Notes under the pieces: model-generated
What the model was told of the DNA's origin: nothing
What the model saw: the letters and a program-made list of their open reading frames with translations, nothing else
Databases searched by the model: none
Program-made: the position numbers and the translations under genes
From: a virus
Lineage: Duplodnaviria > Heunggongvirae > Uroviricota > Caudoviricetes
Strand: one strand, 5' to 3'
Virus record (IMG/VR): IMGVR_UViG_3300002835_005179
Coordinates: 1-64,000 of that record
Length of the DNA stretch: 64,000 bases
Shown: positions 3,504 to 44,212 of the stretch, one piece after another
How the letters are laid out: each line of letters begins with the position of its first letter
Numbering within the stretch: position 1 is the first letter of the stretch

Positions 3504-3557
3504 TAACTAGAAATATATATTCGAAAGAATAAAAACCTCTCAACAAGGAGAAAAATA

Positions 3558-5498
3558 ATGGCTTTTCAGCTTAGTCCAGGCGTAAATGTTTCTGAAATCG
3601 ATTTAACAACTACGGTTCCTGCAGTTGCAACTTCAATTGGAGCAATTGCTGGCGCTTTCCAATGGGGCCCAGTTTTAGAAATAAGAACAATTTCTTCAGA
3701 AATTGAATTAATAGATACTTTCTTTAAACCAAATAACACTGTTGCAGATACTTTCTTTTCTGCAGCAAATTTCTTACAATATTCTAATGCTCTAAGAGTT
3801 GTTAGAAATGTTGGTACTGATGCTAGAAATGCAACAAATGGCGCTTCTGGTATTTCCGGATTGACTATTGCAAATGCTGGTGTGTCAAATAATATGGCAC
3901 CAGGAACTTTTGCATTATCATTTACAGGTGCTACTGGAGCAGGTTCTGGTGCTGCTGGTACTGCAACTATATCTTATGGTGCAACAGGAGCAATTGTTTC
4001 TGCAGTAACTCTGACAAATGCAGGATCAGGATATACTTCTGCTCCAACAGTTGGTATTACAGGTGCTACAGGATTTACTACAAATTTCTCTATCACATCA
4101 TCAACTGCAAATACTTTAATTATTAAGAATGAAACTGATTATCAACAAAATTATATTTCTGGTTCAGCTTCAGCTGCTGGTACTTGGACTGCAAAGTATC
4201 CAGGAATCTTAGGAAATTCTCTGAAAGTTTCAATTTGCGACTCTCAAACTTTTTCCAGTTGGACATATAAGAATGCATTTACAGTAACACCAGGAACTTC
4301 TGATTATGTATCTACTCGTGGTGGTTCTAATGACGAATTGCATGTTATTGTTATTGACGAAGATGGTGCGTTTACTGGAACGCCAGGAACAGTATTAGAA
4401 AAATATGCTTTCTTATCAAAAGCTTCTGATGCTAAGACTGAATCCGGAGAAACTAATTATTATGCAAATGTAATCAATACCAAGTCACAATATATCTGGT
4501 GGACTAATCACCCTTCAGTTGGTGTTGATTGGGGTTCTGCCTCAACTGGTATTGCATTCGATCTATCCGGTCCTCTAACTGCTTCATTATCTGCAGGAGT
4601 TGATGCAAATACATTAACTAATGGCGAAATCCAAGCTGGTTATGATCTATTTGCCGATCCAGAAACTATTGACGTAAATCTAATTATTGGTGGATCTTCA
4701 AATACTACTGTCGGAACTTATCTAGTCCAATCTATTGCAGAAAATAGAAAGGATGCTATTGTGTTCTTATCACCAGCCAAATCAGATGTTGTAGATAATA
4801 AAGGACAAGAAGTAACTGACATAACAACAACCAAAAATGCACTACAATTGTCATCATCTTATGCTGTTTTTGATTCTGGTTGGAAGTATCAATACGATAA
4901 GTACAATGATGTATTCCGCTGGGTTCCTCTAAATGCAGATATTGCTGGTCTATGTGCTAGAACCGATCAAACTAACGATCCATGGTTCTCGCCAGCTGGA
5001 TTTAACAGAGGAAATATCAAAAACGTTGTGAAGTTGGCATTCAATCCAGATAAGGCTGATAGAGATGATCTATATAAGATCGGCGTCAATCCTGTGGTAA
5101 CTTTCCCAGGACAAGGCACTATCTTATATGGAGATAAGACTCTTCTTTCTAAGCCTTCTGCTTTCGATAGAATCAATGTTCGTAGATTATTCATTGTTCT
5201 TGAAAAGGCAATTGCAACTGCTTCTAAATTCTCTCTATTTGAATTGAACGACGAATTTACTAGAGCACAATTTATTGGATTAGTTGAACCTTATCTACGA
5301 GATGTGCAAGGTAGAAGAGGAATTATCGATTTCAAGGTTGTGTGTGACGAAACCAATAATACTCCTCAAGTAATTGATTCTAATTCATTCGTTGGTGATA
5401 TCTATATTAAGCCAGCAAGATCTATCAATTTCATTCAATTGAATTTCGTAGCTGTCAGAACTGGCGTGGAATTTTCTGAGATTGTTGGACAATTCTAA
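3558..5498 (+). CDS. gp18: tail sheath protein
   Basis: N-terminus (LSPGVNVSEIDLT...AGAFQWGP...FLQYSNALRVVRNV) and C-terminus (YQYDKYNDVFRWVPLNADIAGLCARTD...FDRINVRRLF...ARSINFIQLNFVA) closely match T4 gp18. Confidence 0.95.
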   Translation: MAFQLSPGVNVSEIDLTTTVPAVATSIGAIAGAFQWGPVLEIRTISSEIELIDTFFKPNNTVADTFFSAANFLQYSNALRVVRNVGTDARNATNGASGISGLTIANAGVSNNMAPGTFALSFTGATGAGSGAAGTATISYGATGAIVSAVTLTNAGSGYTSAPTVGITGATGFTTNFSITSSTANTLIIKNETDYQQNYISGSASAAGTWTAKYPGILGNSLKVSICDSQTFSSWTYKNAFTVTPGTSDYVSTRGGSNDELHVIVIDEDGAFTGTPGTVLEKYAFLSKASDAKTESGETNYYANVINTKSQYIWWTNHPSVGVDWGSASTGIAFDLSGPLTASLSAGVDANTLTNGEIQAGYDLFADPETIDVNLIIGGSSNTTVGTYLVQSIAENRKDAIVFLSPAKSDVVDNKGQEVTDITTTKNALQLSSSYAVFDSGWKYQYDKYNDVFRWVPLNADIAGLCARTDQTNDPWFSPAGFNRGNIKNVVKLAFNPDKADRDDLYKIGVNPVVTFPGQGTILYGDKTLLSKPSAFDRINVRRLFIVLEKAIATASKFSLFELNDEFTRAQFIGLVEPYLRDVQGRRGIIDFKVVCDETNNTPQVIDSNSFVGDIYIKPARSINFIQLNFVAVRTGVEFSEIVGQF

Positions 5499-8705: not shown

Positions 8706-8974
8706 TGCTTAACGAAAAAACAGTTAAGATGGGTCAGAAAATCCGCTACGATAGGGTTCGTGGCGGTAAGATTCAACGTAAGAAGATTAAATCTGCTAAA
8801 GCAGGATATAGAGTTTCTGGTAAAAAATTAGTTAGAATGAATCCCGCTGAAAAAAGAAAACGAGCAATATCTGCTAGAAAAGCGTCAAGAAAAAGAGCAG
8901 CAAAATTATCATCAATCTTAAAGAAAAGAAAGATCTCAATTAAAAAAGGTAAAAGAGCAGGAATATACAAATGA
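8705..8974 (+). CDS. highly basic small protein (Lys/Arg-rich, DNA-binding or internal-protein candidate)
   Basis: 89 aa, more than 35% K+R, immediately upstream of the gp21 protease. Confidence 0.45.
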   Translation: MLNEKTVKMGQKIRYDRVRGGKIQRKKIKSAKAGYRVSGKKLVRMNPAEKRKRAISARKASRKRAAKLSSILKKRKISIKKGKRAGIYK

Positions 8975-9612
8975 AACTATTAACAGAAGTAAATGAATTC
9001 ATAAAAATTGTTTCAGAATCTGCTGAAGGTAAACCAAAAGATTATTTTATTGAAGGTATTTTCATCCAATGCGAGAAGCCAAATAGAAATAATAGAGTAT
9101 ATAAGATGGAATATATGCAACCAGAAGTAGATCGTTATGTTGAAGAATACGTCAACAAGAATAGAGCTTTTGGTGAATTAGGTCATCCAGATAATCCTAC
9201 AATTAATCTAGATAGAGTATCGCATCTTATTACTGTTCTAGAACAAAAAGGTAATGATTATATCGGTAAAGCAAAAGTTCTAGATACACCAAACGGAAAG
9301 ATTGTTAAAGCATTTATCGATGGTGGTTGTATGTTAGGTGTTTCTACTAGAGGATTAGGTTCTCTTCAACAAGAAAAGTCTTTTTCTATGGTTCAACCAG
9401 ATTACAAAATTATGACTGCCGCAGATATTGTTGCTGATCCATCTGCGCACGAAGCATTTGTGGAAGCTGTTATGGAATCAAAAGAATGGGTTTGGAATAA
9501 TGGAATTGTGAAGGAAGTAACTATTGATTCATATAAGAAGAAGCTAACAACATCAAAAAGATTACAAGAAGATAAGATTGCCATTTTTACAGACTTTCTT
9601 TCGAGATTGTAA
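8971..9612 (+). CDS. gp21: prohead core protease
   Basis: 213 aa with GELGHPD and GVSTRGLGS motifs of the T4 gp21 (peptidase U9) family. Size and position are as in T4. Confidence 0.85.
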   Translation: MKLLTEVNEFIKIVSESAEGKPKDYFIEGIFIQCEKPNRNNRVYKMEYMQPEVDRYVEEYVNKNRAFGELGHPDNPTINLDRVSHLITVLEQKGNDYIGKAKVLDTPNGKIVKAFIDGGCMLGVSTRGLGSLQQEKSFSMVQPDYKIMTAADIVADPSAHEAFVEAVMESKEWVWNNGIVKEVTIDSYKKKLTTSKRLQEDKIAIFTDFLSRL

Positions 9613-12246: not shown

Positions 12247-13056
12247 ATGCCTAATAATATTTATTGTACATACCTTACAATCTACAAAGGTAACAAACTC
12301 CCTCTATATTATATTGGTTCAACTTCTGTTAATAGAATTAACAAAGGTTATCATGGAACCGTGTCTTCTAAGAAATATAAAGATATCTATAAACAAGAAT
12401 TAATATCTAATCCTCACCTATTCAAAACAAAAATACTTACAACACATGAAACCAGAGAAGAAGCTTATGAGAAAGAATTGTTCTTTCAAATAAAATTATC
12501 TGTAGTTAAATCACCAATGTATTTCAATGAATCATTGGCTGTGACAAATGGTTATTTTGGTCGTGCTCTAAATGGAAAAGATAATCCCCTACACGGTAAG
12601 AATCATTCAGAAGAAACAAGAAGAAAGATGTCTGAGAATAGAAAAGGAAAATATAAAGGAATTCCTAAGTCTGAAGAACATAAAAGAAAAATTGCATTGG
12701 CAAATACAGGTAAGAAACATTCTGAAGAATCTAAACGAAAAATGTCTTTAAATCATATTGGTATTGTTGCTTCTGATGAAACTAAGAAGAAATTATCTGA
12801 TATGAGAAAGGGTGAAAAGCATCCTCTTTATGGAAAGACACATTCTCCAGAATCAATTCAGAAGATGAAAGAGACGCATAGTAATCGTTCAGAAGAAACA
12901 CTAAAGAAGCTGTCTGCTGCCAAGAGTGGTGAAAATAATCCTAGTTATGGAAAGAAATGGTTCCATAATCCCATTACCTTAGAACAAATTAGGATCCATC
13001 CTAACAATCCTCCATCTGGATTCTTTCCTGGTAGAATTCCTAAAATTAATAAATAG
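12247..13056 (+). CDS. GIY-YIG homing endonuclease with NUMOD3 repeats
   Basis: N-terminus YLTIY..LPLYYIGST is a GIY-YIG motif. The C-terminal half has repeated H/E...KMS NUMOD3-like modules. Inserted directly after gp23. Confidence 0.85.
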   Translation: MPNNIYCTYLTIYKGNKLPLYYIGSTSVNRINKGYHGTVSSKKYKDIYKQELISNPHLFKTKILTTHETREEAYEKELFFQIKLSVVKSPMYFNESLAVTNGYFGRALNGKDNPLHGKNHSEETRRKMSENRKGKYKGIPKSEEHKRKIALANTGKKHSEESKRKMSLNHIGIVASDETKKKLSDMRKGEKHPLYGKTHSPESIQKMKETHSNRSEETLKKLSAAKSGENNPSYGKKWFHNPITLEQIRIHPNNPPSGFFPGRIPKINK

Positions 13057-13069
13057 ATGAGAGGAATAT

Positions 13070-13327
13070 ATGAACCTAGAAAATTTTAAAGAAGCTTATT
13101 TAACAGTTATTAATGAAGAAATTGAAGAGACCGAAGTAGTCGAAACAGAAGTAACTGATGTCGATGAAGAAACACCTGAAAACGAATTATCTGCAGCAGA
13201 TCATTTTAAGATGGGTGTTATGGCTTTGATGGGTAAGATGGATGCTTCCGAAGAAGAGAATGAAATGATCAATGATTTGGTTGCATCAATCATTTCAGAT
13301 CTTAACGATTCAATGTCTGGTGATTAA
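13070..13327 (+). CDS. small acidic protein with capsid-targeting-like N-terminus
   Basis: 85 aa. MNLENFKEAYLTVINE... is paralogous to the N-terminus of ORF 7676. Confidence 0.4.
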   Translation: MNLENFKEAYLTVINEEIEETEVVETEVTDVDEETPENELSAADHFKMGVMALMGKMDASEEENEMINDLVASIISDLNDSMSGD

Positions 13328-13938
13328 TACCATTCTACAATCTTATCGGCAATTCCATATCTTACTGCTTCTTCGGCAGAAAGCCACACATCGTGAGACG
13401 GCAAAAGAATTTCTCTTACCTTCTTTTCATTCAATCCTGTACACTTCTTATAATGAGCAAGCATTCTCTGGGTAGTTAATTCAAACTCTTTATTTCTTGC
13501 ATACAATTCATGTTCTTTTCCAAAAGAACCCCAAGAGAATTGATGTGAAAGGATAGAAGTATTCTGTGTAATATATCTCTTTCCTTTCTTTCCAGCCATG
13601 AAAATTGCAAGTCCAGCAGAAGCGATTGTCCCTAACCCAAAAGTAGAGATATCAATCTCGGATCCTTTCATAATATCAATAAGGGCAAATCCAGAACAAA
13701 GATCACCACCAACTGAATTAATCAGCATCCTGATTTCTGTTCGATCTTTTTGATCTTGGAAATTGGAATTTCTCTCAACAATATACTGAATAGCATCAGA
13801 TGTAGATTCTATGTTTATCTCGCCAGAGAGAAGATAATAACCTGCTCCCTCGAAGGAGATATACATCTGAGGAATCTCTGGCTTTGGTTTGATTTTAGAC
13901 ATTTTAGTTCTCATTTCGGTTGAGGAATCGAACTCCAA
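13324..13938 (-). CDS. clpP: ClpP-like serine protease
   Basis: INSVGG, GLGTIASAG (catalytic Ser), SHQFS (His) and a C-terminal Asp region, typical of the S14 family. Confidence 0.85.
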   Translation of the reverse strand: MEFDSSTEMRTKMSKIKPKPEIPQMYISFEGAGYYLLSGEINIESTSDAIQYIVERNSNFQDQKDRTEIRMLINSVGGDLCSGFALIDIMKGSEIDISTFGLGTIASAGLAIFMAGKKGKRYITQNTSILSHQFSWGSFGKEHELYARNKEFELTTQRMLAHYKKCTGLNEKKVREILLPSHDVWLSAEEAVRYGIADKIVEWY

Positions 13939-16400: not shown

Positions 16401-16913
16401 TCAAAAATTAAAATATTTTAATTTTGTTCGGTAGATCGAGTCGTCAATCTCTTTCAAGAATTCGAACCAATTACTCGCAATCTTGACATTTAGATAATCA
16501 CACACCATCTTGACATTACCATATCTCCAAAAATCTTCTGTACAATACACAATCGTTTTTCGACCGGATTTACCGATCGATCTTCCGAATAAGCCTAATT
16601 CTAGTAACGTAATAGGAGATTTAGTATTCGGATCAAAATAATAACAGTTAATATCTGAATTTTCTTGACACCGCAATTCCCACATCACTTGTTCGTGAAA
16701 TCTTGGATCATCCGGATGCTGCCTCCAGGATGAATCCCAGTCATCACGACGGGGATTCATAACAACAACATCTTCATGAAGAGATAGATGTTGGATTACA
16801 CGGTCTTGCCAATTATCAGCGATACCCATCTCAATAGATCCACCAAGAAAGATGGTGATATTTTCAAGGTGCTTTGCAGTCAACTTAGTTGGAGGTTTGA
16901 TTACATTAAACAT
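16401..16913 (-). CDS. nucleoside 2-deoxyribosyltransferase-like protein
   Basis: FLGG N-terminus and PITLLELGLF (TxxExG-like) resemble the NDT superfamily. Start reset to the ATG that overlaps the prs stop, with a GGAGG-less context. The upstream 47 codons of the track ORF overlap prs. Confidence 0.35.
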   Translation of the reverse strand: MFNVIKPPTKLTAKHLENITIFLGGSIEMGIADNWQDRVIQHLSLHEDVVVMNPRRDDWDSSWRQHPDDPRFHEQVMWELRCQENSDINCYYFDPNTKSPITLLELGLFGRSIGKSGRKTIVYCTEDFWRYGNVKMVCDYLNVKIASNWFEFLKEIDDSIYRTKLKYFNF

Positions 16914-17790
16914 ATAAACTATCCAATTCTTCTTTCGCAATTTCAGCCATCCAATCAATAACGTCAATAACTTCGACATTATCAGAAATACCAGACTCTG
17001 TGAAAGAATTTGTTGTGTAGATCTTATCAAAGTATTTCGATAGATCATCGAATCCTTTCGAGAAGATTCCGTGTGTCACAAACAACCGAAGATTTGGGAT
17101 CTGCAACTTTTCAGCAATACCCAAGAAAGTTCCACCACCATCACAGATATCGTCGATGATATAAGAATTTCGTGTCGTGTCTTTGATTACTGGAACTTCG
17201 AAACCAAGAAATCTGCCAGTAACAGGATCACGTTTCTTTTTGCAGTAATATTTCGGATGATTATCGGAAAGCATATCAGCATATCTATTCTTCGCACCTT
17301 CATCCGGAAAGATAATATTTGCTTCAGGATCAGTTACAAGAATTTCTTGAATAATCTTATTAATCGGAATATCTTTATACTCATAATCAAACCTGTTAGA
17401 ATGACAATCTAAAGTATAGATTTTTGCATATGGCCAGACGCAGGTAATGATATTCAAGAAAACTTTCTTACCGAGACAATCTCCTTCTACGAAGCGACGA
17501 TCGGCTCTTGAATATGGAAGATAAGGAATCACAACAGCAATATTATTGGATGGCATAGACAAAGTAATATCGTTGATTGCATCTTGCAACAGAAGCAACT
17601 TCATTACATCATCGGAATTCTTAATTCGATGAATTAAGACAACACCAAAACACGAAGTCAATGCTTTGATAGTTTCGGGTTTGAGGCGAACCTGAAGTTC
17701 GCCTCCTGGATACTTAAACCACTCGTACGAATTTTCGTCGATACGCAATACATTACGATTGGACACGAACACGCTCCTTAATGGTTTCAA
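16906..17790 (-). CDS. prs: ribose-phosphate pyrophosphokinase (PRPP synthetase)
   Basis: VVIPYLPYSRADRR (PRPP synthetase signature) and IIDDICDGGGT (PRPP-binding loop). Confidence 0.8.
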   Translation of the reverse strand: MKPLRSVFVSNRNVLRIDENSYEWFKYPGGELQVRLKPETIKALTSCFGVVLIHRIKNSDDVMKLLLLQDAINDITLSMPSNNIAVVIPYLPYSRADRRFVEGDCLGKKVFLNIITCVWPYAKIYTLDCHSNRFDYEYKDIPINKIIQEILVTDPEANIIFPDEGAKNRYADMLSDNHPKYYCKKKRDPVTGRFLGFEVPVIKDTTRNSYIIDDICDGGGTFLGIAEKLQIPNLRLFVTHGIFSKGFDDLSKYFDKIYTTNSFTESGISDNVEVIDVIDWMAEIAKEELDSLYV

Positions 17791-19276
17791 ACTTCACTTT
17801 ATTCAGTATACCGTCTTTCAAGATGCAAGTCAAGTCGCAATTTTCAAGTTCTTCGAGAGTCGCTTCTTCCTTACAAATCCAGTTGTTATTTTCTGGAGTC
17901 CAATCTGGAGCCTTGTAGACAGCAAGAATACCTTTACGAGATTTCTTCATTCCAGAATCAGTCTTTGGATCCTTAAAGATAGGAATGATTTTTCCATCTT
18001 TTTCGATAGCAGTCGCCTTCATTGCGAATCCGAAAGTGTCTCTTGTGACATACTCATAAGTATATGACCCGACACCAAACACCATATTATATGGTGAGAT
18101 CTTCAATTTCTCAACGATGCCAGATAGAATCTGGCGTGCACGATCCAACGTAATCGAATCACCATAGATACAACCTGCTTTGTTGATCATACGATTATGA
18201 TCCAAACCAAAAACTTCTTTCAGAAGAGCCAAGACACCAAGATCAGCTGGTCCATTACCTCGTTCTTGAATGCTAGAATTATTCTTGCCTAGTACAATCT
18301 CAACAGGATCACCGGAATCAGGACGAATAACAATCTTACCGTTACGAGCAATGATTTTATCTTTCAAACGAGGCATGAAGTCTGTTAGAACAGTCCACAG
18401 ATCCCAAGTATCAGAAACGATCGAAACGATTCCTTCTGGATAGATATCTTCAACTAGACGACGGAAAGTTTCAAATTCGTCTTCTTTACCACCAGCACAC
18501 ATAACAGAGTGCTCTGTAGCAGGAACAGAAGAACCTGTCGTAGCAATGTTTGCATCATAATAATGCTCAGCTGCTAGAATAGCAGGGATAGTATCAGTTC
18601 CATTGAACGATAGAAGGTGACCCATACCAGAAGCTACTGCATCACCTAGAGACGACATACCACGCATGGAGAAATCGTGGAATTGATAATCGATGAAACC
18701 AAAATCAGTCTCTCCTGCTTTTCGTGCCCATTCCATACCAATCTTACGATATTCAAGAGCAGTCGTTGCCGAAGTGTATGGTTTCCAAATAGATAGAGAA
18801 AGAATCGTTTCTAGGAAATTAGGAAGCCAGAAAGCGTGGTCGACTGTATTGTAAATGACAAGAGATGGAATTCCAATATTAACCGAATATCCTTCCGGAA
18901 TTGCGTAGATGTTAATAGGAAGACGTCCTTCATCATGAAGTGCCTTGATGTGGTCTGTTTTGGGATTCTGAATTCCAAGAGTTTTAGAGATTACACGGAC
19001 ATATTCTGCTTCTACTTCGATCCAAGGTACAGAGAAAAAGCTATTATCGAATTCCTTCAGAAGATCAAGTAGAAAATACTGGTGTCCAAAAACAACAATT
19101 TTTTCAATACCAGGGACACGAGATTTTCGTGCAGTCCAATTTGAGTAGACTCGTGTCACTCCTTCTGGATATTGGCGAACGTGATCAATCTTGTAGAAGT
19201 CTGCTAAGAGAACTGGGATGGTGTTCATAATTAACCTTTCTTTATTCATTATACTAAATATAGAATCAGAAAGCAA
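17753..19276 (-). CDS. nadV: nicotinamide phosphoribosyltransferase
   Basis: 507-aa NAMPT-family protein (N-terminus LLADFYKIDH...). Adjacent to prs, as in other NadV-carrying phages. Confidence 0.8.
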   Translation of the reverse strand: MLSDSIFSIMNKERLIMNTIPVLLADFYKIDHVRQYPEGVTRVYSNWTARKSRVPGIEKIVVFGHQYFLLDLLKEFDNSFFSVPWIEVEAEYVRVISKTLGIQNPKTDHIKALHDEGRLPINIYAIPEGYSVNIGIPSLVIYNTVDHAFWLPNFLETILSLSIWKPYTSATTALEYRKIGMEWARKAGETDFGFIDYQFHDFSMRGMSSLGDAVASGMGHLLSFNGTDTIPAILAAEHYYDANIATTGSSVPATEHSVMCAGGKEDEFETFRRLVEDIYPEGIVSIVSDTWDLWTVLTDFMPRLKDKIIARNGKIVIRPDSGDPVEIVLGKNNSSIQERGNGPADLGVLALLKEVFGLDHNRMINKAGCIYGDSITLDRARQILSGIVEKLKISPYNMVFGVGSYTYEYVTRDTFGFAMKATAIEKDGKIIPIFKDPKTDSGMKKSRKGILAVYKAPDWTPENNNWICKEEATLEELENCDLTCILKDGILNKVKFETIKERVRVQS

Positions 19277-35056: not shown

Positions 35057-36774
35057 TTATATTTGAAAAAATGAAATATAAAAATATTCTTTCAACCGGA
35101 AATAAATTTAATGAAATAATATTCAATGGTGTGAAAACAAATCTCTGCATCGGAAAAAATGGTGAAGGAAAATCAACTTTTCTTGACGCATTAACTTTCG
35201 TTCTATACGGTAAACCTTTCAGAAAAATCAACAAACCACAACTAATTAATTCTACAAATAACTCAGATTTACTTGTTGAAATTAACTTTAAAATCAATAA
35301 AGATTCATACCTAATACGTCGTGGTATGAAACCAAATATTTTCGAAATCTTTACAAATAACAAGTTAATAGATCAGAATGCAATCTCAAGAGATTATCAA
35401 GAATTACTGGAAAATCATATCTTGAAGATGAATTATAAAACATTCACTCAGATTGTCGTTATTGGAAACGCAACTTACATGCCATTTATGAAGTTGAATC
35501 CAGTAGATAGAAGAAATATCGTTGAAAATCTTTTGGATATTGATATCTTCTCTAAGATGAATTCTCTTCTTAAAACAAAAGTGTCTAAGACAAAAGAAGA
35601 AATAAATGGAACTTCTTATAAACTAGATCTATCTAAAGAAAAGATGAAGATACATAAGAATCTAATTTCGAATTCAACATCAGATATTGACAAATCAATC
35701 ACAGATATCGATGCTGAAATGAGACGAAATGAATTGCAAGTAATTGCAAAAGAATTGGCTATAGATAAATTGAATAAAGAGATTCAAGAGATCATTGTTA
35801 ATGATTCAAAAATCAGTACCCTTACTTCTAAGATATCCAATCTTACACATTATTCTGTAACTTTTAAAGAAAAGATGAAGAATCTGTCGAAAGAAATTAA
35901 ATTCTTCAATACAAATGATTCTTGTCCAACTTGTACACAATCTATTCCAGAAGAATTTAAATCAACTACATTATCATCTAAAGAAAAAGAATTAACCAAA
36001 TATAATGATGCCATATCGTCCTGTAATTCTGAGATTAATAGTATATCTATCGAGATAGAAGAAATTAACAAAAATATAGAAGAGATTAAAGAAAGAAAGA
36101 CAGAAATAACAAAGAGACAATTTGAAATTGATTCTATTACACAATATATCGGTAAGTTATCAAAACAGATTAATGATTTAAGAGTTAAGAAGATTGAAGA
36201 TGTAAAGAAGATCGAAGAAGAAAAGACAATCTTAGAACAGGAATTGGAAACTCTGAATGAAGAACGTGATACTCTTCTAAATCAACAACACCTACAATCC
36301 ATTGCAGCAATTCTTTTGAAAGATGATGGAATCAAAACGAAAATTATTCGTCATTATCTTCCAGTAATGAATAAGATTATCAACAAGTATCTACAATTAA
36401 TGGACTTCTATGTCAACTTTTCACTTGATGAAAACTTCGATGAAGTCATCAAGAATAAATCAAAAGAGAATTTTACTTATCATTCCTTCTCTGAAGGCGA
36501 GAAATTAAGAATCGATCTTGCTATCCTTTTTACTTGGAGAGAAATTTCAAAGATGAAGAATGCTGCAAATACTAATTTGTTGATTCTTGATGAAATTCTT
36601 GATTCATCATTGGATGCTCTGGGTATTGATGATTTCTTGAAAATCTTATCTTCTAGTAAAGAACAAACTAATACCTTTGTTATTTCGCATAGAAGTGATG
36701 GAATTCAAGATAAATTTGAGAGAATCTATAGATTCTCTAAGGTAAATGGTTTCACTAAGATATCTATAGATTAA
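35053..36774 (+). CDS. gp46: recombination endonuclease ATPase subunit (Rad50/SbcC-like)
   Basis: Walker A GKNGEGKST, long coiled coil with a CPTC zinc hook, and C-terminal signature/Walker B LLILDE. Confidence 0.85.
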   Translation: MIIFEKMKYKNILSTGNKFNEIIFNGVKTNLCIGKNGEGKSTFLDALTFVLYGKPFRKINKPQLINSTNNSDLLVEINFKINKDSYLIRRGMKPNIFEIFTNNKLIDQNAISRDYQELLENHILKMNYKTFTQIVVIGNATYMPFMKLNPVDRRNIVENLLDIDIFSKMNSLLKTKVSKTKEEINGTSYKLDLSKEKMKIHKNLISNSTSDIDKSITDIDAEMRRNELQVIAKELAIDKLNKEIQEIIVNDSKISTLTSKISNLTHYSVTFKEKMKNLSKEIKFFNTNDSCPTCTQSIPEEFKSTTLSSKEKELTKYNDAISSCNSEINSISIEIEEINKNIEEIKERKTEITKRQFEIDSITQYIGKLSKQINDLRVKKIEDVKKIEEEKTILEQELETLNEERDTLLNQQHLQSIAAILLKDDGIKTKIIRHYLPVMNKIINKYLQLMDFYVNFSLDENFDEVIKNKSKENFTYHSFSEGEKLRIDLAILFTWREISKMKNAANTNLLILDEILDSSLDALGIDDFLKILSSSKEQTNTFVISHRSDGIQDKFERIYRFSKVNGFTKISID

Positions 36775-37793
36775 ATATTCATAGATATATTATATTTTTT
36801 CATTTTGTTGGTTTTGGTTTTTTCGAAGAGTAAATCTTCCTGATCTTCTACTATCTTTATAAGAACAACATCTCCGGATTGTAATCGTTCGTCAGAAAGA
36901 ACGCAAGATAACGGGATTTCAATTTTGCTAGAAATAACTCTCTTCAAATTTCTTGCACCATATTCTTCGGAAAAACCTTTTTCTATCAACCAGTCTTTTG
37001 TCTTATCTTCCATAACAAAAAAGATTTTCTTTAGATTCATCTTAGACGATAATATTCTATATTGGATATCAGATAACTGTAGTTCCAGAATCTTTTTCAT
37101 ATGTTCTGGTGTTAATGTTTCGAATTTAATTGTCACATCAATTCTATTCAAGAATTCTGGTCTAAATTTTGATCTCATCGATTTATCTAGTAGAGACAAT
37201 TCTTCTTCTTCGTCGACCTCTTTGTTAACAAATCCTATCGTTTTAGATCTTTGCACATACTCCTCAACACCAATATTTGATGTGAATATAATGAAACAAT
37301 TTCTGAAATTCACAGAATCATTATTTCCCAATCTAATTTCTCCCTTATCTAATATAGAAAGAAGTAGATTAAATAGAGAATCTGTAGCTTTCTCAATCTC
37401 ATCGAATAGAATGACATTCGGAACAACTCCTTCTACATCTTTTTTGTTGAAGAATGCTTTGGTTTCCGAGTGTCCTATATAACCAGGAGGAGCTCCAATT
37501 AATTTGGCAAGCTCATGAGATTGTTGATACTCACCACAATTTACTTTAAGAAACCTATCAACACCAAAAAACTTAGCCAATTCTTCTGCTACTTTCGTTT
37601 TCCCGCAACCAGTTTTACCAGCAAAGAAGAAAGAAGATATAGGTCGAGTTGGATCAGATAAACCATTATAGAACTTTTGTGTAGATATCGCCAATTCTCT
37701 TATGGCTTTTTCTTGACCAACAACAACATTATTCAATTTATCTTCTAATTCTTTTGCTGGTCCAGACAGATTTCTAGAGTTTAAGATCATCAT
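36771..37793 (-). CDS. ClpA/ClpB D2-type AAA+ unfoldase (single AAA module) with IGF ClpP-docking loop
   Basis: VVGQEKAIRELAIST...FFFAGKTGCGKT (Walker A), NVILFDEIEKA...SVNFRNCFIIFTSNIG (Walker B/sensor 1), then KTIGFVNKE in the position of the ClpA IGL loop. Confidence 0.8.
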   Translation of the reverse strand: MMILNSRNLSGPAKELEDKLNNVVVGQEKAIRELAISTQKFYNGLSDPTRPISSFFFAGKTGCGKTKVAEELAKFFGVDRFLKVNCGEYQQSHELAKLIGAPPGYIGHSETKAFFNKKDVEGVVPNVILFDEIEKATDSLFNLLLSILDKGEIRLGNNDSVNFRNCFIIFTSNIGVEEYVQRSKTIGFVNKEVDEEEELSLLDKSMRSKFRPEFLNRIDVTIKFETLTPEHMKKILELQLSDIQYRILSSKMNLKKIFFVMEDKTKDWLIEKGFSEEYGARNLKRVISSKIEIPLSCVLSDERLQSGDVVLIKIVEDQEDLLFEKTKTNKMKKYNISMNI

Positions 37794-37829
37794 GATCCTC
37801 CTGAAACTATTTATTGGTATATGTGAAAA

Positions 37830-38140
37830 TGCCGCCTTCTGTTTCCAGGTGGCGGCGAACCCAGTCTTATGCTGTTTAAGCAGCAGCAGACATTACTAAT
37901 ACGTTAGTATTTGCGTTTATAGTTTACGCTGTTATGGTAGTCGTCTACCAGAAATCTACTCTCATCTATTCCTGCCAATCGATACTGATTCAGGCCCACC
38001 AAAGTATACTCTTTGTCAATATCCCCGCAGATATCATACGTTTGGTGTAGGACTCAACTTCATAGGTCGAGCGAGTATACTTTGGTGGACCTGCTGGGTT
38101 CCGCCCCCAGGTCTTGCACAGTTGTTGAATCGGATCAACG
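37830..38140 (-). ncRNA. GC-rich structured non-coding island (candidate ncRNA, minus strand)
   Basis: About 300 nt at roughly 50% GC in a 30%-GC genome, with no ORF. It contains long complementary segments (GGCCCACCAAAGTATACTC ... GAGTATACTTTGGTGGACC; GCCGCC..GGCGGC). Read on the minus strand it ends in a GC hairpin followed by ATTTTC. Confidence 0.3.
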
Positions 38141-38449
38141 ATTTCAATTTTTATTTATTAGTCTTCCTCTCACCAATCCAAAAGATTCAGTCTCAAATAT
38201 CAAATAATTATTTGTGCCATCATTATACCAATGTCTTGTGTTTCCCAAACCATCTCTTCTGCCGTTTCACTGAAAATGCCCATAGTCTTTTCTAATTCCT
38301 CAATAGCAATATTCTTATTTGTAATTCTATTTTTGGTAGAAAACGAATCTATAACAAGACCCGTTGTTAAATGTATTAACCTGACACCAGCTGGATTCTC
38401 ATTCAATTTTTGATCTGGTGTCAGGAAATATTCAAATGTACACTGTGTG

Positions 38450-38923
38450 TTAATCGTGTGAATATTCATCCACATCAATTTGACCATTACGATATACATT
38501 AATCTCTGCATGATCACCAAACATTTGACGAAGATCTTCATCTTCAAACATAGATAGAAGTTCGTCTACTTCATTATATGCCTTCTTTATTGAATCGATC
38601 GAATCGAAAGAAAGATCTTCAAGATCAATCTCTTTACTATATTGTTCGTTATTCAAAGTCCAGTTATCAACATGATCACAAGAGTTATTGAATCTATAAT
38701 AATCTCGATTAACACCAAATACACAAGTGTCACCATCATTGAAATAAGGTGTATATTGATTCCAAGAAAATGAATTCAATTGTGGATTGTCATTGAAGAT
38801 ATCTTTTGTGATATCACCAAATACACTCTTTGCGTTATCTCGTAACATCTTCATATGTTCGTCACGAATTACCTTAAATTCATTAATCTTTGCAATAAAT
38901 TCATTCTTAGTCATATTAATCAA
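38450..38923 (-). CDS. hypothetical protein
   Basis: 157-aa ORF. Confidence 0.45.
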   Translation of the reverse strand: MINMTKNEFIAKINEFKVIRDEHMKMLRDNAKSVFGDITKDIFNDNPQLNSFSWNQYTPYFNDGDTCVFGVNRDYYRFNNSCDHVDNWTLNNEQYSKEIDLEDLSFDSIDSIKKAYNEVDELLSMFEDEDLRQMFGDHAEINVYRNGQIDVDEYSHD

Positions 38924-42154: not shown

Positions 42155-43208
42155 GCTTCGTCTGTCAAGCGAATATGGTGTGTATTCTAAACAACACAAT
42201 CAATATCCAAATCTGTACCAATTCACTTATGATCAGATTGAATCTTCGAAGATCAAAGATCATCCGATCGTGCGAGAATCTCGTGGTATTATCCTGGATC
42301 GTGATGCCTCTTGGTCGGTAGTTGCTCGTCCTTTCGATCGATTCTTTAATTGGGGCGAGAATGTCACTGAAGTTAACTTTGATTGGTCTTCCTTTGTAGC
42401 ACAAGAAAAGATTGACGGATCATTAATGATCCTATACAATTATCTTGGTAAATGGAATGTTGCCACCAAAGGTTCTCCTGATGCGAATGGTACTATCGGT
42501 GATAATTCGTTCACATTCGCTGAGTTATTCTGGGAAACCTTCAAACAACAAATGTATTCTGTTTCTGATCTAGATCCTAGAAATACATATATGTTTGAAT
42601 TGACTTCAAAGTATAATCGTGTAGTTACTTCTCAGTTGAATAACGAAGGCAAGTTAACTCTAATTGGTGTTCGTGATAATAATACTGGTCAAGAGTTTCC
42701 AGTTTCTTTGTACAAAGATATCTTCGATGTGGTTCGATCATATGATATGAATACTATCGATGAGATCTTAATTGCAGCAAAAGAACTCGATCCTTCTAAA
42801 CAAGAAGGCTTCGTTCTAGTTGATAAGAACTATAATAGAATCAAAGTTAAGTCAGAGAAGTATGTTTTGATTCATCATCTGAATTCTGGTAACGTTCGCC
42901 GCAGCTTACTAAATCTTTGGAAATCAGGAGATTCGGAAGAGCTATTATCATATCATACGGAATTTCGAAATGAATTTAATAATTTAGATGCGTCTATTCA
43001 TTTATTATGCCAAGAAATAGACAATGGATGGTCGATGACAAAACACATCATTGATAGGAAAGAATTTGCTTTAACTGTTAATCAATACTACAAACATATT
43101 TCATCTGCCCTTTTTATGAAAAAAGATAATAAATTGAAAAATACAATAGATTATTTTAAAAATATGGATATTAAAAAATTAGAAAAAATATTAGACTTTG
43201 TTATCTGA
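42111..43208 (+). CDS. RNA ligase (Rnl1-like, KxDG nucleotidyltransferase)
   Basis: Motif I EKIDGSLM. Size of 365 aa. Co-occurs with polynucleotide kinase (pseT) in the window. Confidence 0.55.
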   Translation: MLELQKFLNTNFGDRLRLSSEYGVYSKQHNQYPNLYQFTYDQIESSKIKDHPIVRESRGIILDRDASWSVVARPFDRFFNWGENVTEVNFDWSSFVAQEKIDGSLMILYNYLGKWNVATKGSPDANGTIGDNSFTFAELFWETFKQQMYSVSDLDPRNTYMFELTSKYNRVVTSQLNNEGKLTLIGVRDNNTGQEFPVSLYKDIFDVVRSYDMNTIDEILIAAKELDPSKQEGFVLVDKNYNRIKVKSEKYVLIHHLNSGNVRRSLLNLWKSGDSEELLSYHTEFRNEFNNLDASIHLLCQEIDNGWSMTKHIIDRKEFALTVNQYYKHISSALFMKKDNKLKNTIDYFKNMDIKKLEKILDFVI

Positions 43209-44012
43209 AATACGAGAAAGACGATTATTTTTTCTAGTTTCTACCATTTGAGATTTTTGTTTCAAACTAATAATTCGTCCTGGAATAAGTAAATGATTTG
43301 TATCGTCGATATGTTCTAGATCCTTTACTTTAATAAATATATTTTTTGTCCCATCATTATACCACTTCCCTCCCTTATTATTTTTCTTATTTTTATTTTC
43401 TATCAAAGAGGCGGACCGTTTTTTCTTCGTTTCTTCAGATTGTTTTTTATTAAAAGAAGGATTTTTAGAACCCAATTTAGATTCAGACATATTTTTTTTC
43501 TGTTTATCGGTTCTTTTTTGTCCGACGACATATGTATTGCCCAATTTAGATAAACCCATTTTCTTACGGTGAATTTCAGATTTTCTTTTACCTAGTAGTG
43601 CAGCAGATATTTCGGCTTTGGTTTCTGGAGTGTGGTTCTTTCCATACCTAGGAGACTTTTCTCCAGTTTTTCCATACATAGGAGACTTTTCTCCAGACCT
43701 TTTGTCTAGTGCTTCCGGAGTGTATTTATAACCAGACACCCCTTCCCCGCCATCGGTCTTATTTCTCAGGATTCCTGTTCCTAGATCTTTTCGACCATAA
43801 AACTGTATTAGTCTTATTTCTTCGTCGAAGGCTTCTGATTCTGACAGATTTTCGAAGAGAATAGATATTCTAGAAGATTCAACAGGACGAAATCGTCTCT
43901 TACACCAGGCTCTGTTACCCTGACCTTTTCCAATATAATATGGAGTCCCATCTTCTCTTAGAAAAGCATAGACATAGAATCTGGCTGGGTCTTTATAAAT
44001 AGTTTTAGACAT
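43191..44012 (-). CDS. GIY-YIG homing endonuclease with NUMOD3 repeats
   Basis: FYVYAFL..GTPYYIGKGQGNRAW GIY-YIG motif and repeated GEKSPxYGK/NHTPETK NUMOD3-like modules. Start reset to the ATG preceded by GGGAGG. Confidence 0.8.
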   Translation of the reverse strand: MSKTIYKDPARFYVYAFLREDGTPYYIGKGQGNRAWCKRRFRPVESSRISILFENLSESEAFDEEIRLIQFYGRKDLGTGILRNKTDGGEGVSGYKYTPEALDKRSGEKSPMYGKTGEKSPRYGKNHTPETKAEISAALLGKRKSEIHRKKMGLSKLGNTYVVGQKRTDKQKKNMSESKLGSKNPSFNKKQSEETKKKRSASLIENKNKKNNKGGKWYNDGTKNIFIKVKDLEHIDDTNHLLIPGRIISLKQKSQMVETRKNNRLSRISDNKV

Positions 44013-44212
44013 ATAAGCTACCTCCCAAGTAGTTTGTGTGTTCAGATGGGAGAAAGCGAACACTTTCTCCCCATAATTATTTATAAAAATATATTCTTGA
44101 CTATTTTATCAGAATTTGAAATTATCAAAGTTCTTCTTATATGAAGATCCTCACCGTACTTGCGAATTGTATGAAAGTTCTAATTGGTATAAGTTTAAGA
44201 AATTCATTCGCT

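Follow-up and report, generated by a model that had tools for sequence, protein, structure and literature searches.

Transfer-messenger RNA (tmRNA) rescues stalled ribosomes and tags proteins, and tmRNA genes with a two-piece, circularly permuted architecture are found in bacteria and in bacteriophages. The two-piece tmRNA of Caulobacter is the alphaproteobacterial example (Keiler et al. 2000, as cited in PMC9004378). Among phages, a two-piece tmRNA has been described in Methylophilales phage Melnitz (Buchholz et al. 2022, PMC9004378), whose SsrA is annotated at MZ577097.1 45984-46436. In a census of phage tmRNAs, for which ARAGORN was the tool used to find and type the genes, 53 of 133 unique tmRNAs were two-piece, and 50 of these 53 were of marine or aquatic origin; a two-piece tmRNA was present in 17 of 47 Melnitz-like contigs (PMC9004378). 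A tmRNA database from 2025 contains 79 phage sequences and introduced the Rfam family RF04321 (PMC11915505). The locus described here is a GC-rich island at 37830-38140 of a 64,000-nucleotide (nt) viral DNA, which is termed the window (positions 1 to 64,000 of IMG/VR record IMGVR_UViG_3300002835_005179). This island is very probably a functional tmRNA (ssrA) gene with a circularly permuted order, carried on the minus strand of a T4-like phage.

Identity and anatomy of the permuted RNA gene

When the whole window is scanned with Rfam, two tmRNA models match the minus strand of the island from end to end. The tmRNA_permuted model (RF04321) aligns at 38145-37876 with 99.9 bits (gathering score 47, E 2.9e-18, model positions 1-213 of 213), and the alpha_tmRNA model (RF01849) aligns at 38207-37828 with 92.9 bits (gathering score 50, E 5.6e-24, model positions 1-355 of 355). 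The latter is the best-scoring clade-specific model for the window. A preliminary description of the island, made from the letters alone, had proposed a structured RNA, namely a regulatory small RNA, a ribozyme or an intron-like element, and had named an Rfam search as a check. Its view of the region as non-coding, transcribed from the minus strand and ending in a hairpin plus a U-run holds, while the three proposed identities are ruled out, as the island is a complete circularly permuted tmRNA gene.

The permuted order can be read straight from the sequence: on the minus strand, to which all gene-anatomy coordinates below refer, the T-arm, the acceptor 3′ strand and the CCA come before the acceptor 5′ strand and the tag reading frame. 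The first part is an acceptor piece of about 65 nt (38083..38147), delimited by Rfam alignments, coordinates and covariation, the 5′ end of which probably lies where a promoter-like box (see below) would place it. This piece contains the 5′ strand of an outer helix, GAAAU (38145-38141), a T-arm, CUGGG / GGCGGAA / CCCAG (38110-38094), which has a 5-base-pair (bp) stem and a 7-nt loop and lies beside the acceptor 3′ strand, that strand itself, CAGGUCC (38093-38087), and the discriminator A followed by an encoded CCA (ACCA, 38086-38083). An intervening spacer of 85 nt follows (37998..38082), the two ends of which belong to an inverted repeat; it is hypervariable in relatives and is presumably removed on maturation. 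The two ends of the spacer and the ACCA end lengthen the acceptor stem by 14 bp, and this continuation resembles the precursor helix expected where the spacer of a permuted tmRNA is excised.

The second part is a coding piece of about 170 nt (37826..37997), delimited by Rfam alignments and covariation, which starts with the acceptor 5′ strand GGGCCUG (37997-37991) and also contains the 3′ strand of the outer helix and the U-run. The two pieces together form an acceptor stem like that of alanine tRNA, with 7 bp (GGGCCUG/CAGGUCC), the alanine-identity pair G3:U70, A73 and CCA. Further along the coding piece, a hairpin, UGGUAG-ACGA-CUACCA (37950-37935), lies upstream of the resume codon, which is directly preceded by a conserved, A-rich leader, UAAACUAUAAAC (37926-37915).

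The tag reading frame occupies 37876..37914 and reads GCA AAU ACU AAC GUA UUA GUA AUG UCU GCU GCU GCU UAA, which encodes ANTNVLVMSAAA followed by a stop. This frame was read manually, and ARAGORN at a relaxed threshold gives the identical peptide. It has a resume codon after UAAACUAUAAAC, a stop codon and a small-hydrophobic C-terminus, and a small hairpin (GCUG/CAGC, 37871-37884) holds the stop codon in its loop. In related phage versions, which carry labels of the form L001, the corresponding tags are ANTNVLAMAA in L088, VNTNVMAMSAAA in L003, GNAKAMSMSA in L001 and L002, and ANDNYVPVDYALAA in Melnitz, each followed by a stop; ARAGORN reads the L003 and Melnitz tags in the same way. The frame is kept at the peptide level across relatives, with insertions and deletions in multiples of three. 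The stop itself varies, being UAA in the window and UAG in L001, L003 and L088.

At the 3′ end, an H-type pseudoknot (37831..37864) is supported by covariation and has a conserved loop, AAACAGAA. Stem 1 pairs CUGGGU (37864-37859) with ACCUGG, and stem 2 pairs GCCGCC (37856-37851) with GGCGGC (37836-37831), after which AUUUU follows. Stem 2 appears to serve as the terminator hairpin as well in this phage. By the usual features of rho-independent terminators (a short loop and at least 5 U), the hairpin falls outside the class, with a 14-nt loop and UUUU, and a consensus terminator scan finds none. In L001 and L003, a separate canonical terminator hairpin comes after the pseudoknot.

The composition and folding of the island agree with a structured RNA. 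GC content at 37830-38140 is 46.6% compared to a window mean of 34.2%, which places the island in the top 1.1% of 311-nt windows; the rise reported in the preliminary description is real, and its figure of about 50% is slightly too high. The minus-strand RNA has a minimum free energy (MFE) of -117.4 kcal/mol, compared to -81.6 +/- 5.4 for dinucleotide shuffles (z = -6.7), and none of 100 shuffles equals it, so that the folding check which had been suggested gives an island more stable than its shuffles. The self-complementary segments listed earlier are likewise present. The longest of them has arms at 37991-38011 and 38073-38093 that are 21 nt long and 95% complementary, slightly longer than the 19 bp or so first claimed, and corresponds to the acceptor stem plus its 14-bp precursor continuation. 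The GCTGTTTAAGCAGC palindrome, at 37871-37884, is the tag-stop hairpin, and GCCGCC/GGCGGC, located at 37831-37841 / 37846-37856, forms the final hairpin, GCCGCC-14 nt-GGCGGC-AUUUU, the U-run of which is only 4 U long. The description of the island as free of open reading frames (ORFs) applies to the minus strand, where zero ORFs of at least 40 amino acids (aa) occur in 37794-38199 between the flanking minus-strand ORFs 36771-37793 and 38200-38547. It does not apply to the plus strand, where two TTG-started ORFs overlap the island (38013-38207, and 38122-38295, which extends beyond the region).

Ahead of the gene lies a promoter-like region (38152..38181) made up of TTGGAT (38181-38176), 17 nt and ATAAAT, which overlaps the box AATAAATA (38159-38152). 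The box ends 6 nt ahead of the first helix of the RNA and is conserved in all relatives; in L001, L002, L003 and Melnitz it is exactly TATAAATA, which resembles the T4 late consensus. A sigma-70-like reading (TTGGAT-17-ATAAAT) suits the region as well as a T4-late reading does, and the promoter may belong to either class. At the equivalent position Melnitz has TTGACA-17-TATAAA, and an early promoter has been described in that phage (Buchholz et al., PMC9004378). A consensus promoter scan of the window does not call the region, and TATAAATA occurs 10 times in the window compared to 8.5 expected, which is no excess.

Related phages and alternative explanations

The window belongs to a T4-like myophage, the closest cultured relatives of which are Pelagibacter phage HTVC008M and phage Melnitz, with major capsid proteins 62.9% and 61.9% identical to its own. 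Structural and packaging genes include terminase, sheath, tube, portal, a gp21-type prohead protease, scaffold and a gp23-type capsid protein, and other T4-type genes encode rIIA/B, a gp46/47-like nuclease, UvsX, a gp41-like helicase, a gp43-like polymerase and an RNA ligase. A blastn search with the locus and a megablast search with 25 kb gave zero matches in 50,697 deposited phage records. Homologues of the adjacent ATPase that are 72-74% identical occur on five IMG/VR contigs and one Joint Genome Institute (JGI) metagenome contig, in each of which a permuted tmRNA precedes the ATPase gene on its strand. Exact-sequence look-ups of the upstream RF-1-like protein led to near-identical contigs and to one further variant, L088; of the related contigs known, the longest measures 81.7 kb. 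The annotated SsrA of Melnitz aligns with the window RNA along its whole length, and RF04321 detects every version that was scanned.

For covariation, the strands of six helices were taken from the window, L088, L001, L002, L003 and Melnitz, and their order was verified in each sequence. In this helix-only alignment of six related rows, which was adjusted to the structure by hand and speaks to consistency rather than probability, 96.1% of cells form standard pairs and 29 of 47 pairs are changed on both sides. Not one of 500 shuffles attains these values, and pairing falls to 41-45% when the partner strand is slid by 1-3 columns. Every helix is retained through compensatory changes in the five related phage versions, Melnitz included, as the preliminary description had proposed to check in related phages. 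The G3:U70 pair is invariant in all six versions, with covariation at acceptor positions 4-6. T-arm stems in relatives are GUGGG/CCCAC, GGGAG/CUCCC and AUGGG/CCCAU, with three of the five pairs differing on both sides, and in the 3′ pseudoknot all six pairs of stem 2 and three of the six pairs of stem 1 change on both sides. Among relatives, the length of the spacer ranges from about 20 to about 130 nt and its sequence is unrelated, as expected for a discarded segment, whereas the 12 scored extension pairs by the acceptor stem covary.

The lineage of the gene does not map cleanly onto one bacterial clade. The window scores highest with the alpha model, while L001 and L003 score higher with the beta_tmRNA model; the T-loop of L003 is canonical, UUCGACU, while the other versions have alpha-type loops. 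A search of IMG/VR with the pattern TAACN{0,1}AGCRTAAACTATAA returned the five contigs already known through the ATPase, together with six chance matches in coding sequences without a tmRNA. The same pattern gave 53 matches in 185,579 bacterial and archaeal genomes. These come from unrelated taxa and are about as many as estimated for chance, so they do not indicate a host.

Several results weigh against a functional tmRNA in the window. With default settings, ARAGORN does not call a tmRNA there, and at -ps80 it reports the gene as a permuted 'tmRNAp*' with the tag ANTNVLVMSAAA, where the 'p' stands for a low score. A tblastn search of the 64 kb with a manually entered E. coli SmpB query gave no smpB match (best E 2.2), so the phage must use host SmpB or encode its own elsewhere, and host SmpB is presumed below. 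Upstream of the resume codon, the hairpin at 37950-37935 is supported, and a PK1 pseudoknot is not established. In addition, a perfect 8-nt complement, GAACCCAG / CUGGGUUC (38094-38101 / 37857-37864), joins the 3′ half of the T-arm to pseudoknot stem 1, and this pairing displaces the T-arm in the MFE fold. The hand fitting of the helix alignment belongs on the same side of the balance. A pairing that resembles this 8-nt alternative can be drawn by eye in L001 and L003 too. As for ARAGORN, its default calls include L003 and Melnitz and miss the window, L088, L001 and L002, that is, four of six versions. The census was made with this tool, and it therefore probably undercounts phage tmRNAs.

Silence from default ARAGORN could also be taken as a sign that the island is a nonfunctional remnant of a host ssrA gene, for instance an attP-type fragment left by imprecise excision or recombination. 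It is known that tmRNA genes are frequent integration sites and that ssrA fragments occur in prophages (PMC9004378, PMC11915505), and the GC content of the island is well above the phage background. High GC is, however, expected of any structured RNA in an AT-rich genome, the ORFs scanned include no integrase, and the genome is that of a T4-like phage. The gene is complete, as both Rfam models are matched end to end, and at least five diverged phage versions retain it, the tag frame being conserved and every helix showing compensatory changes. A remnant is therefore very improbable. The same completeness and conservation with covariation among related phages, including Melnitz, speak against the horizontally acquired fragment offered as another option in the preliminary description, which could at most be a statement about remote origin. 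Less improbable than a remnant, though still unlikely, is a tmRNA-like decoy that binds SmpB, alanyl-tRNA synthetase (AlaRS) or ribosomes and blocks or diverts host trans-translation instead of tagging. The tmRNA-like RNA of mycobacteriophage DS6A, which lacks a coding sequence (CDS), is reported to inhibit endogenous tmRNA in E. coli (PMC11915505), the smpB search described above saw no phage copy in the window, and the tag ends differ among relatives (SAAA, AMAA, SMSA). Yet the tag frame, 10-14 codons long, is conserved with in-frame insertions and deletions, as are the leader ahead of the resume codon and the placing of the stop codon in the loop of a hairpin, none of which a pure decoy would need.

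The position of the island, directly upstream of a Clp-type ATPase gene on the same strand and with a terminator-like hairpin about 30 nt before its start codon, would also suit a cis-regulatory leader of that gene, such as a riboswitch, an attenuator or an RNA thermometer. Against this, the tmRNA of L003, L004 and L071 is separated from the ATPase gene by a 370-aa gene of unknown family, the homologous RNA of Melnitz has no adjacent ATPase gene, and zero riboswitch families reach the gathering score in the whole window. As the sequence also has the defining features of a tmRNA, a cis-regulatory role is the least credible of these explanations and can hardly be entertained. A functional permuted tmRNA accounts best for the complete architecture and for its retention in diverged phages.

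Neighbouring genes and a possible mechanism

The downstream neighbour of the tmRNA gene (36771..37793, minus strand) encodes a single-ring AAA+ unfoldase, 340 aa long and of the ClpA/ClpB/ClpC D2 type, with matches to Pfam AAA_2 and ClpB_D2-small. This ATPase has intact Walker A/B motifs and a GYIG pore loop, and it aligns with the ClpC D2 domain in the PDB (E 1e-58). In the alignment, an IGF tripeptide stands where S. aureus ClpC has AGF, a position which we take to be the ClpP-docking loop of ClpC. The linkage of tmRNA and ATPase is present in every close relative. More distant homologues of the ATPase (L072-L083, 26-39% identical) lack a tmRNA within 3 kb, which limits the linkage to a close clade. 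In the variant with the 370-aa gene (L003, L004, L071), the position just upstream of the tmRNA is taken not by the RF-1-like gene but by one for a 145-aa protein (L004 1912-2349, plus strand), which carries a metalloprotease-like HExxH motif (IHEMGH). Just before the ATPase start codon there is a conserved CAATAAATAG motif followed by AGGAGGA (window 37800-37826, minus strand; L001 3970-4000), which may be a second late-promoter-like box with a Shine-Dalgarno sequence.

The upstream neighbour (38200..38487, minus strand) is a 95-aa RF-1-domain mini-protein, with a Pfam RF-1 score of 25.5 bits that is below the cut-off and a match to phrog_20323. It lacks the catalytic GGQ motif and has TPDQ in its place. 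The small RF-1-like relatives examined (P0002, P0003, P0010, P0011) also lack GGQ, and the family has TPDQ, TPEQ, TPTQ or SPEEK there. The family is tiny, with 8 matches in 1.84 billion representative proteins in an exhaustive HMMER search, and the AlphaFold model of P0003 has a pLDDT of 53, which is too poor for a fold search. In close relatives the RF-1-like protein is longer (131-139 aa), and HNH-like or other small genes separate it from the tmRNA. This means that the window carries a truncated deletion variant, and that the adjacency of this gene to the tmRNA is not strict. In L087, for example, an HNH-like gene (3556-4215) lies between the two, and homing-endonuclease-like genes come and go in the clade; elsewhere in the window, ORFs of this kind occur at 12247-13056 (plus strand) and 43191-44063 (minus strand). 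In P0006 the RF-1-like ORF continues into an unrelated C-terminal region that looks endonuclease-like by eye. A prfB-like +1 frameshift joining the ORF at 38450-38923 to the RF-1-like ORF was considered and rejected, as the overlap lacks a slippery or stop-codon site of the prfB kind. Gene callers keep the counterparts of these two ORFs as separate genes on related contigs.

A ClpP-like peptidase of 204 aa is encoded at a distance (13324..13938, minus strand). Conserved positions of ClpP, presumably those of the catalytic triad, are matched in it by Ser, His and Asp. As the window also has a T4 gp21-type prohead protease, encoded separately at 8971-9612, this peptidase is probably not the one for head maturation. 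The ClpP homologue is thus a possible proteolytic partner, and a functional link to the tmRNA is conceivable.

Other features of the window lie outside this neighbourhood. A tRNA with a CUA anticodon (an amber suppressor) is found at 24146-24220 on the plus strand, labelled 'tRNA-Pyl' by ARAGORN and scoring 64 bits with the Rfam tRNA model. The long ORFs of the window give no sign of TAG recoding, with 34 TAA, 7 TAG and 7 TGA stops. A pair of nicotinamide adenine dinucleotide (NAD) salvage genes occupies 16906-19276 on the minus strand, with a nicotinamide phosphoribosyltransferase at 17753-19276 and a ribose-phosphate pyrophosphokinase-like gene at 16906-17790. Such gene pairs occur in large aquatic T4-like phages.

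By analogy with other two-piece tmRNAs (Keiler et al. 2000 and Sharkady and Williams 2004, both as cited in PMC9004378; PMC11915505), the gene would be expressed as follows. A precursor of about 320 nt would start just past the conserved (T/A)ATAAATA box and end at the GCCGCC/GGCGGC hairpin plus UUUU. In this precursor, the first-encoded 3′ acceptor strand and CCA would pair with the later 5′ acceptor strand, in a helix prolonged by the 14 bp. Host tRNA-processing enzymes would then excise the spacer, RNase P cutting at G1 of GGGCCUG and 3′ trimming proceeding to the encoded CCA, to leave the acceptor piece of about 65 nt and the coding piece of about 170 nt joined through the acceptor stem and the outer helices. 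The RNA would be alanylated by host AlaRS, which would recognize G3:U70 and A73. With the presumed host SmpB, it would enter stalled ribosomes, where translation would restart at GCA and add (A)ANTNVLVMSAAA. Finally, the ribosome would be released at UAA, and the tagged protein would pass to Clp-type proteases.

The conserved neighbourhood, in a genome that combines a Clp-type unfoldase with a ClpP homologue and an RF-1 mini-protein devoid of GGQ, suggests a possible phage tagging and degradation unit. In its fullest form, such a phage-owned 'tag and destroy' unit would have the tmRNA tag read by the linked unfoldase together with the phage ClpP homologue, while the RF-1-like protein steers rescue. 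The tmRNA would add a phage-specific tag (...MSAAA or ...AMAA, with ...AANTNVLVMSAAA as the end in the window), and this tag would be recognized by the tmRNA-linked ClpA/C-D2-like ATPase with its IGF loop, partnered by the ClpP homologue at 13324-13938. The GGQ-less RF-1-like protein might fill the A site of stalled ribosomes without peptide hydrolysis, and its occupation of the A site might divert rescue from host release-factor-type pathways to tagging. This complete scheme is speculative and is doubtful as it stands. The linkage to a Clp-type unfoldase, in a genome that also has a ClpP homologue and an RF-1-like mini-protein, nevertheless makes it a concrete hypothesis, and it raises the question of whether a lytic-phage tmRNA serves ribosome recycling alone or directed proteolysis by phage-owned machinery.

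Place among known tmRNAs

An unexplained GC-rich island is here resolved as a complete RNA gene, which adds a diverged lineage to the few phage two-piece tmRNAs. The Melnitz tmRNA is similar in its permuted order, in the (T)ATAAATA box upstream, in G3:U70 and in a precursor stem that extends the acceptor stem. Both RNAs have an alpha-type T-loop (GGCGGAA in the window and GGCAGUA in Melnitz), a AAACUAUAA leader ahead of the resume codon, a tag that starts AN(D/T)N and a 3′ pseudoknot with a AAACAGAA loop, and both are encoded by related T4-like genomes with major capsid proteins about 62% identical. However, the two are too divergent for blastn, and default ARAGORN finds the Melnitz gene but not that of the window. 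Melnitz carries a glutamine (glnA) riboswitch in the 3′ domain, while the window has none at gathering score and the 3′ extension of the Melnitz RNA is without a counterpart in the alignment. The tag of the window is shorter and ends in SAAA instead of ALAA. The neighbours also differ, being the RF-1-like mini-protein and the ClpA/C-D2-like ATPase in the window, compared to small ORFs and a gp33-type late-transcription coactivator in Melnitz.

The alphaproteobacterial two-piece tmRNA (RF01849; Caulobacter) shares the two-piece architecture, an unusual T-loop and the 3′ region GGGUUCG...ACCUGG(A/C)AACAGAA, but the window gene is encoded by a lytic-type phage rather than by a bacterium. The one-piece tmRNAs of mycobacteriophage cluster C and the CDS-less RNA of DS6A are likewise phage-encoded members of the tmRNA family (PMC11915505). 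These have a non-permuted order or no tag frame, in contrast to the permuted order and conserved tag frame of the window gene (PMC11915505). The gene described here is therefore a diverged member of the known two-piece tmRNA lineage of aquatic phages and, in this respect, mostly an ordinary find.

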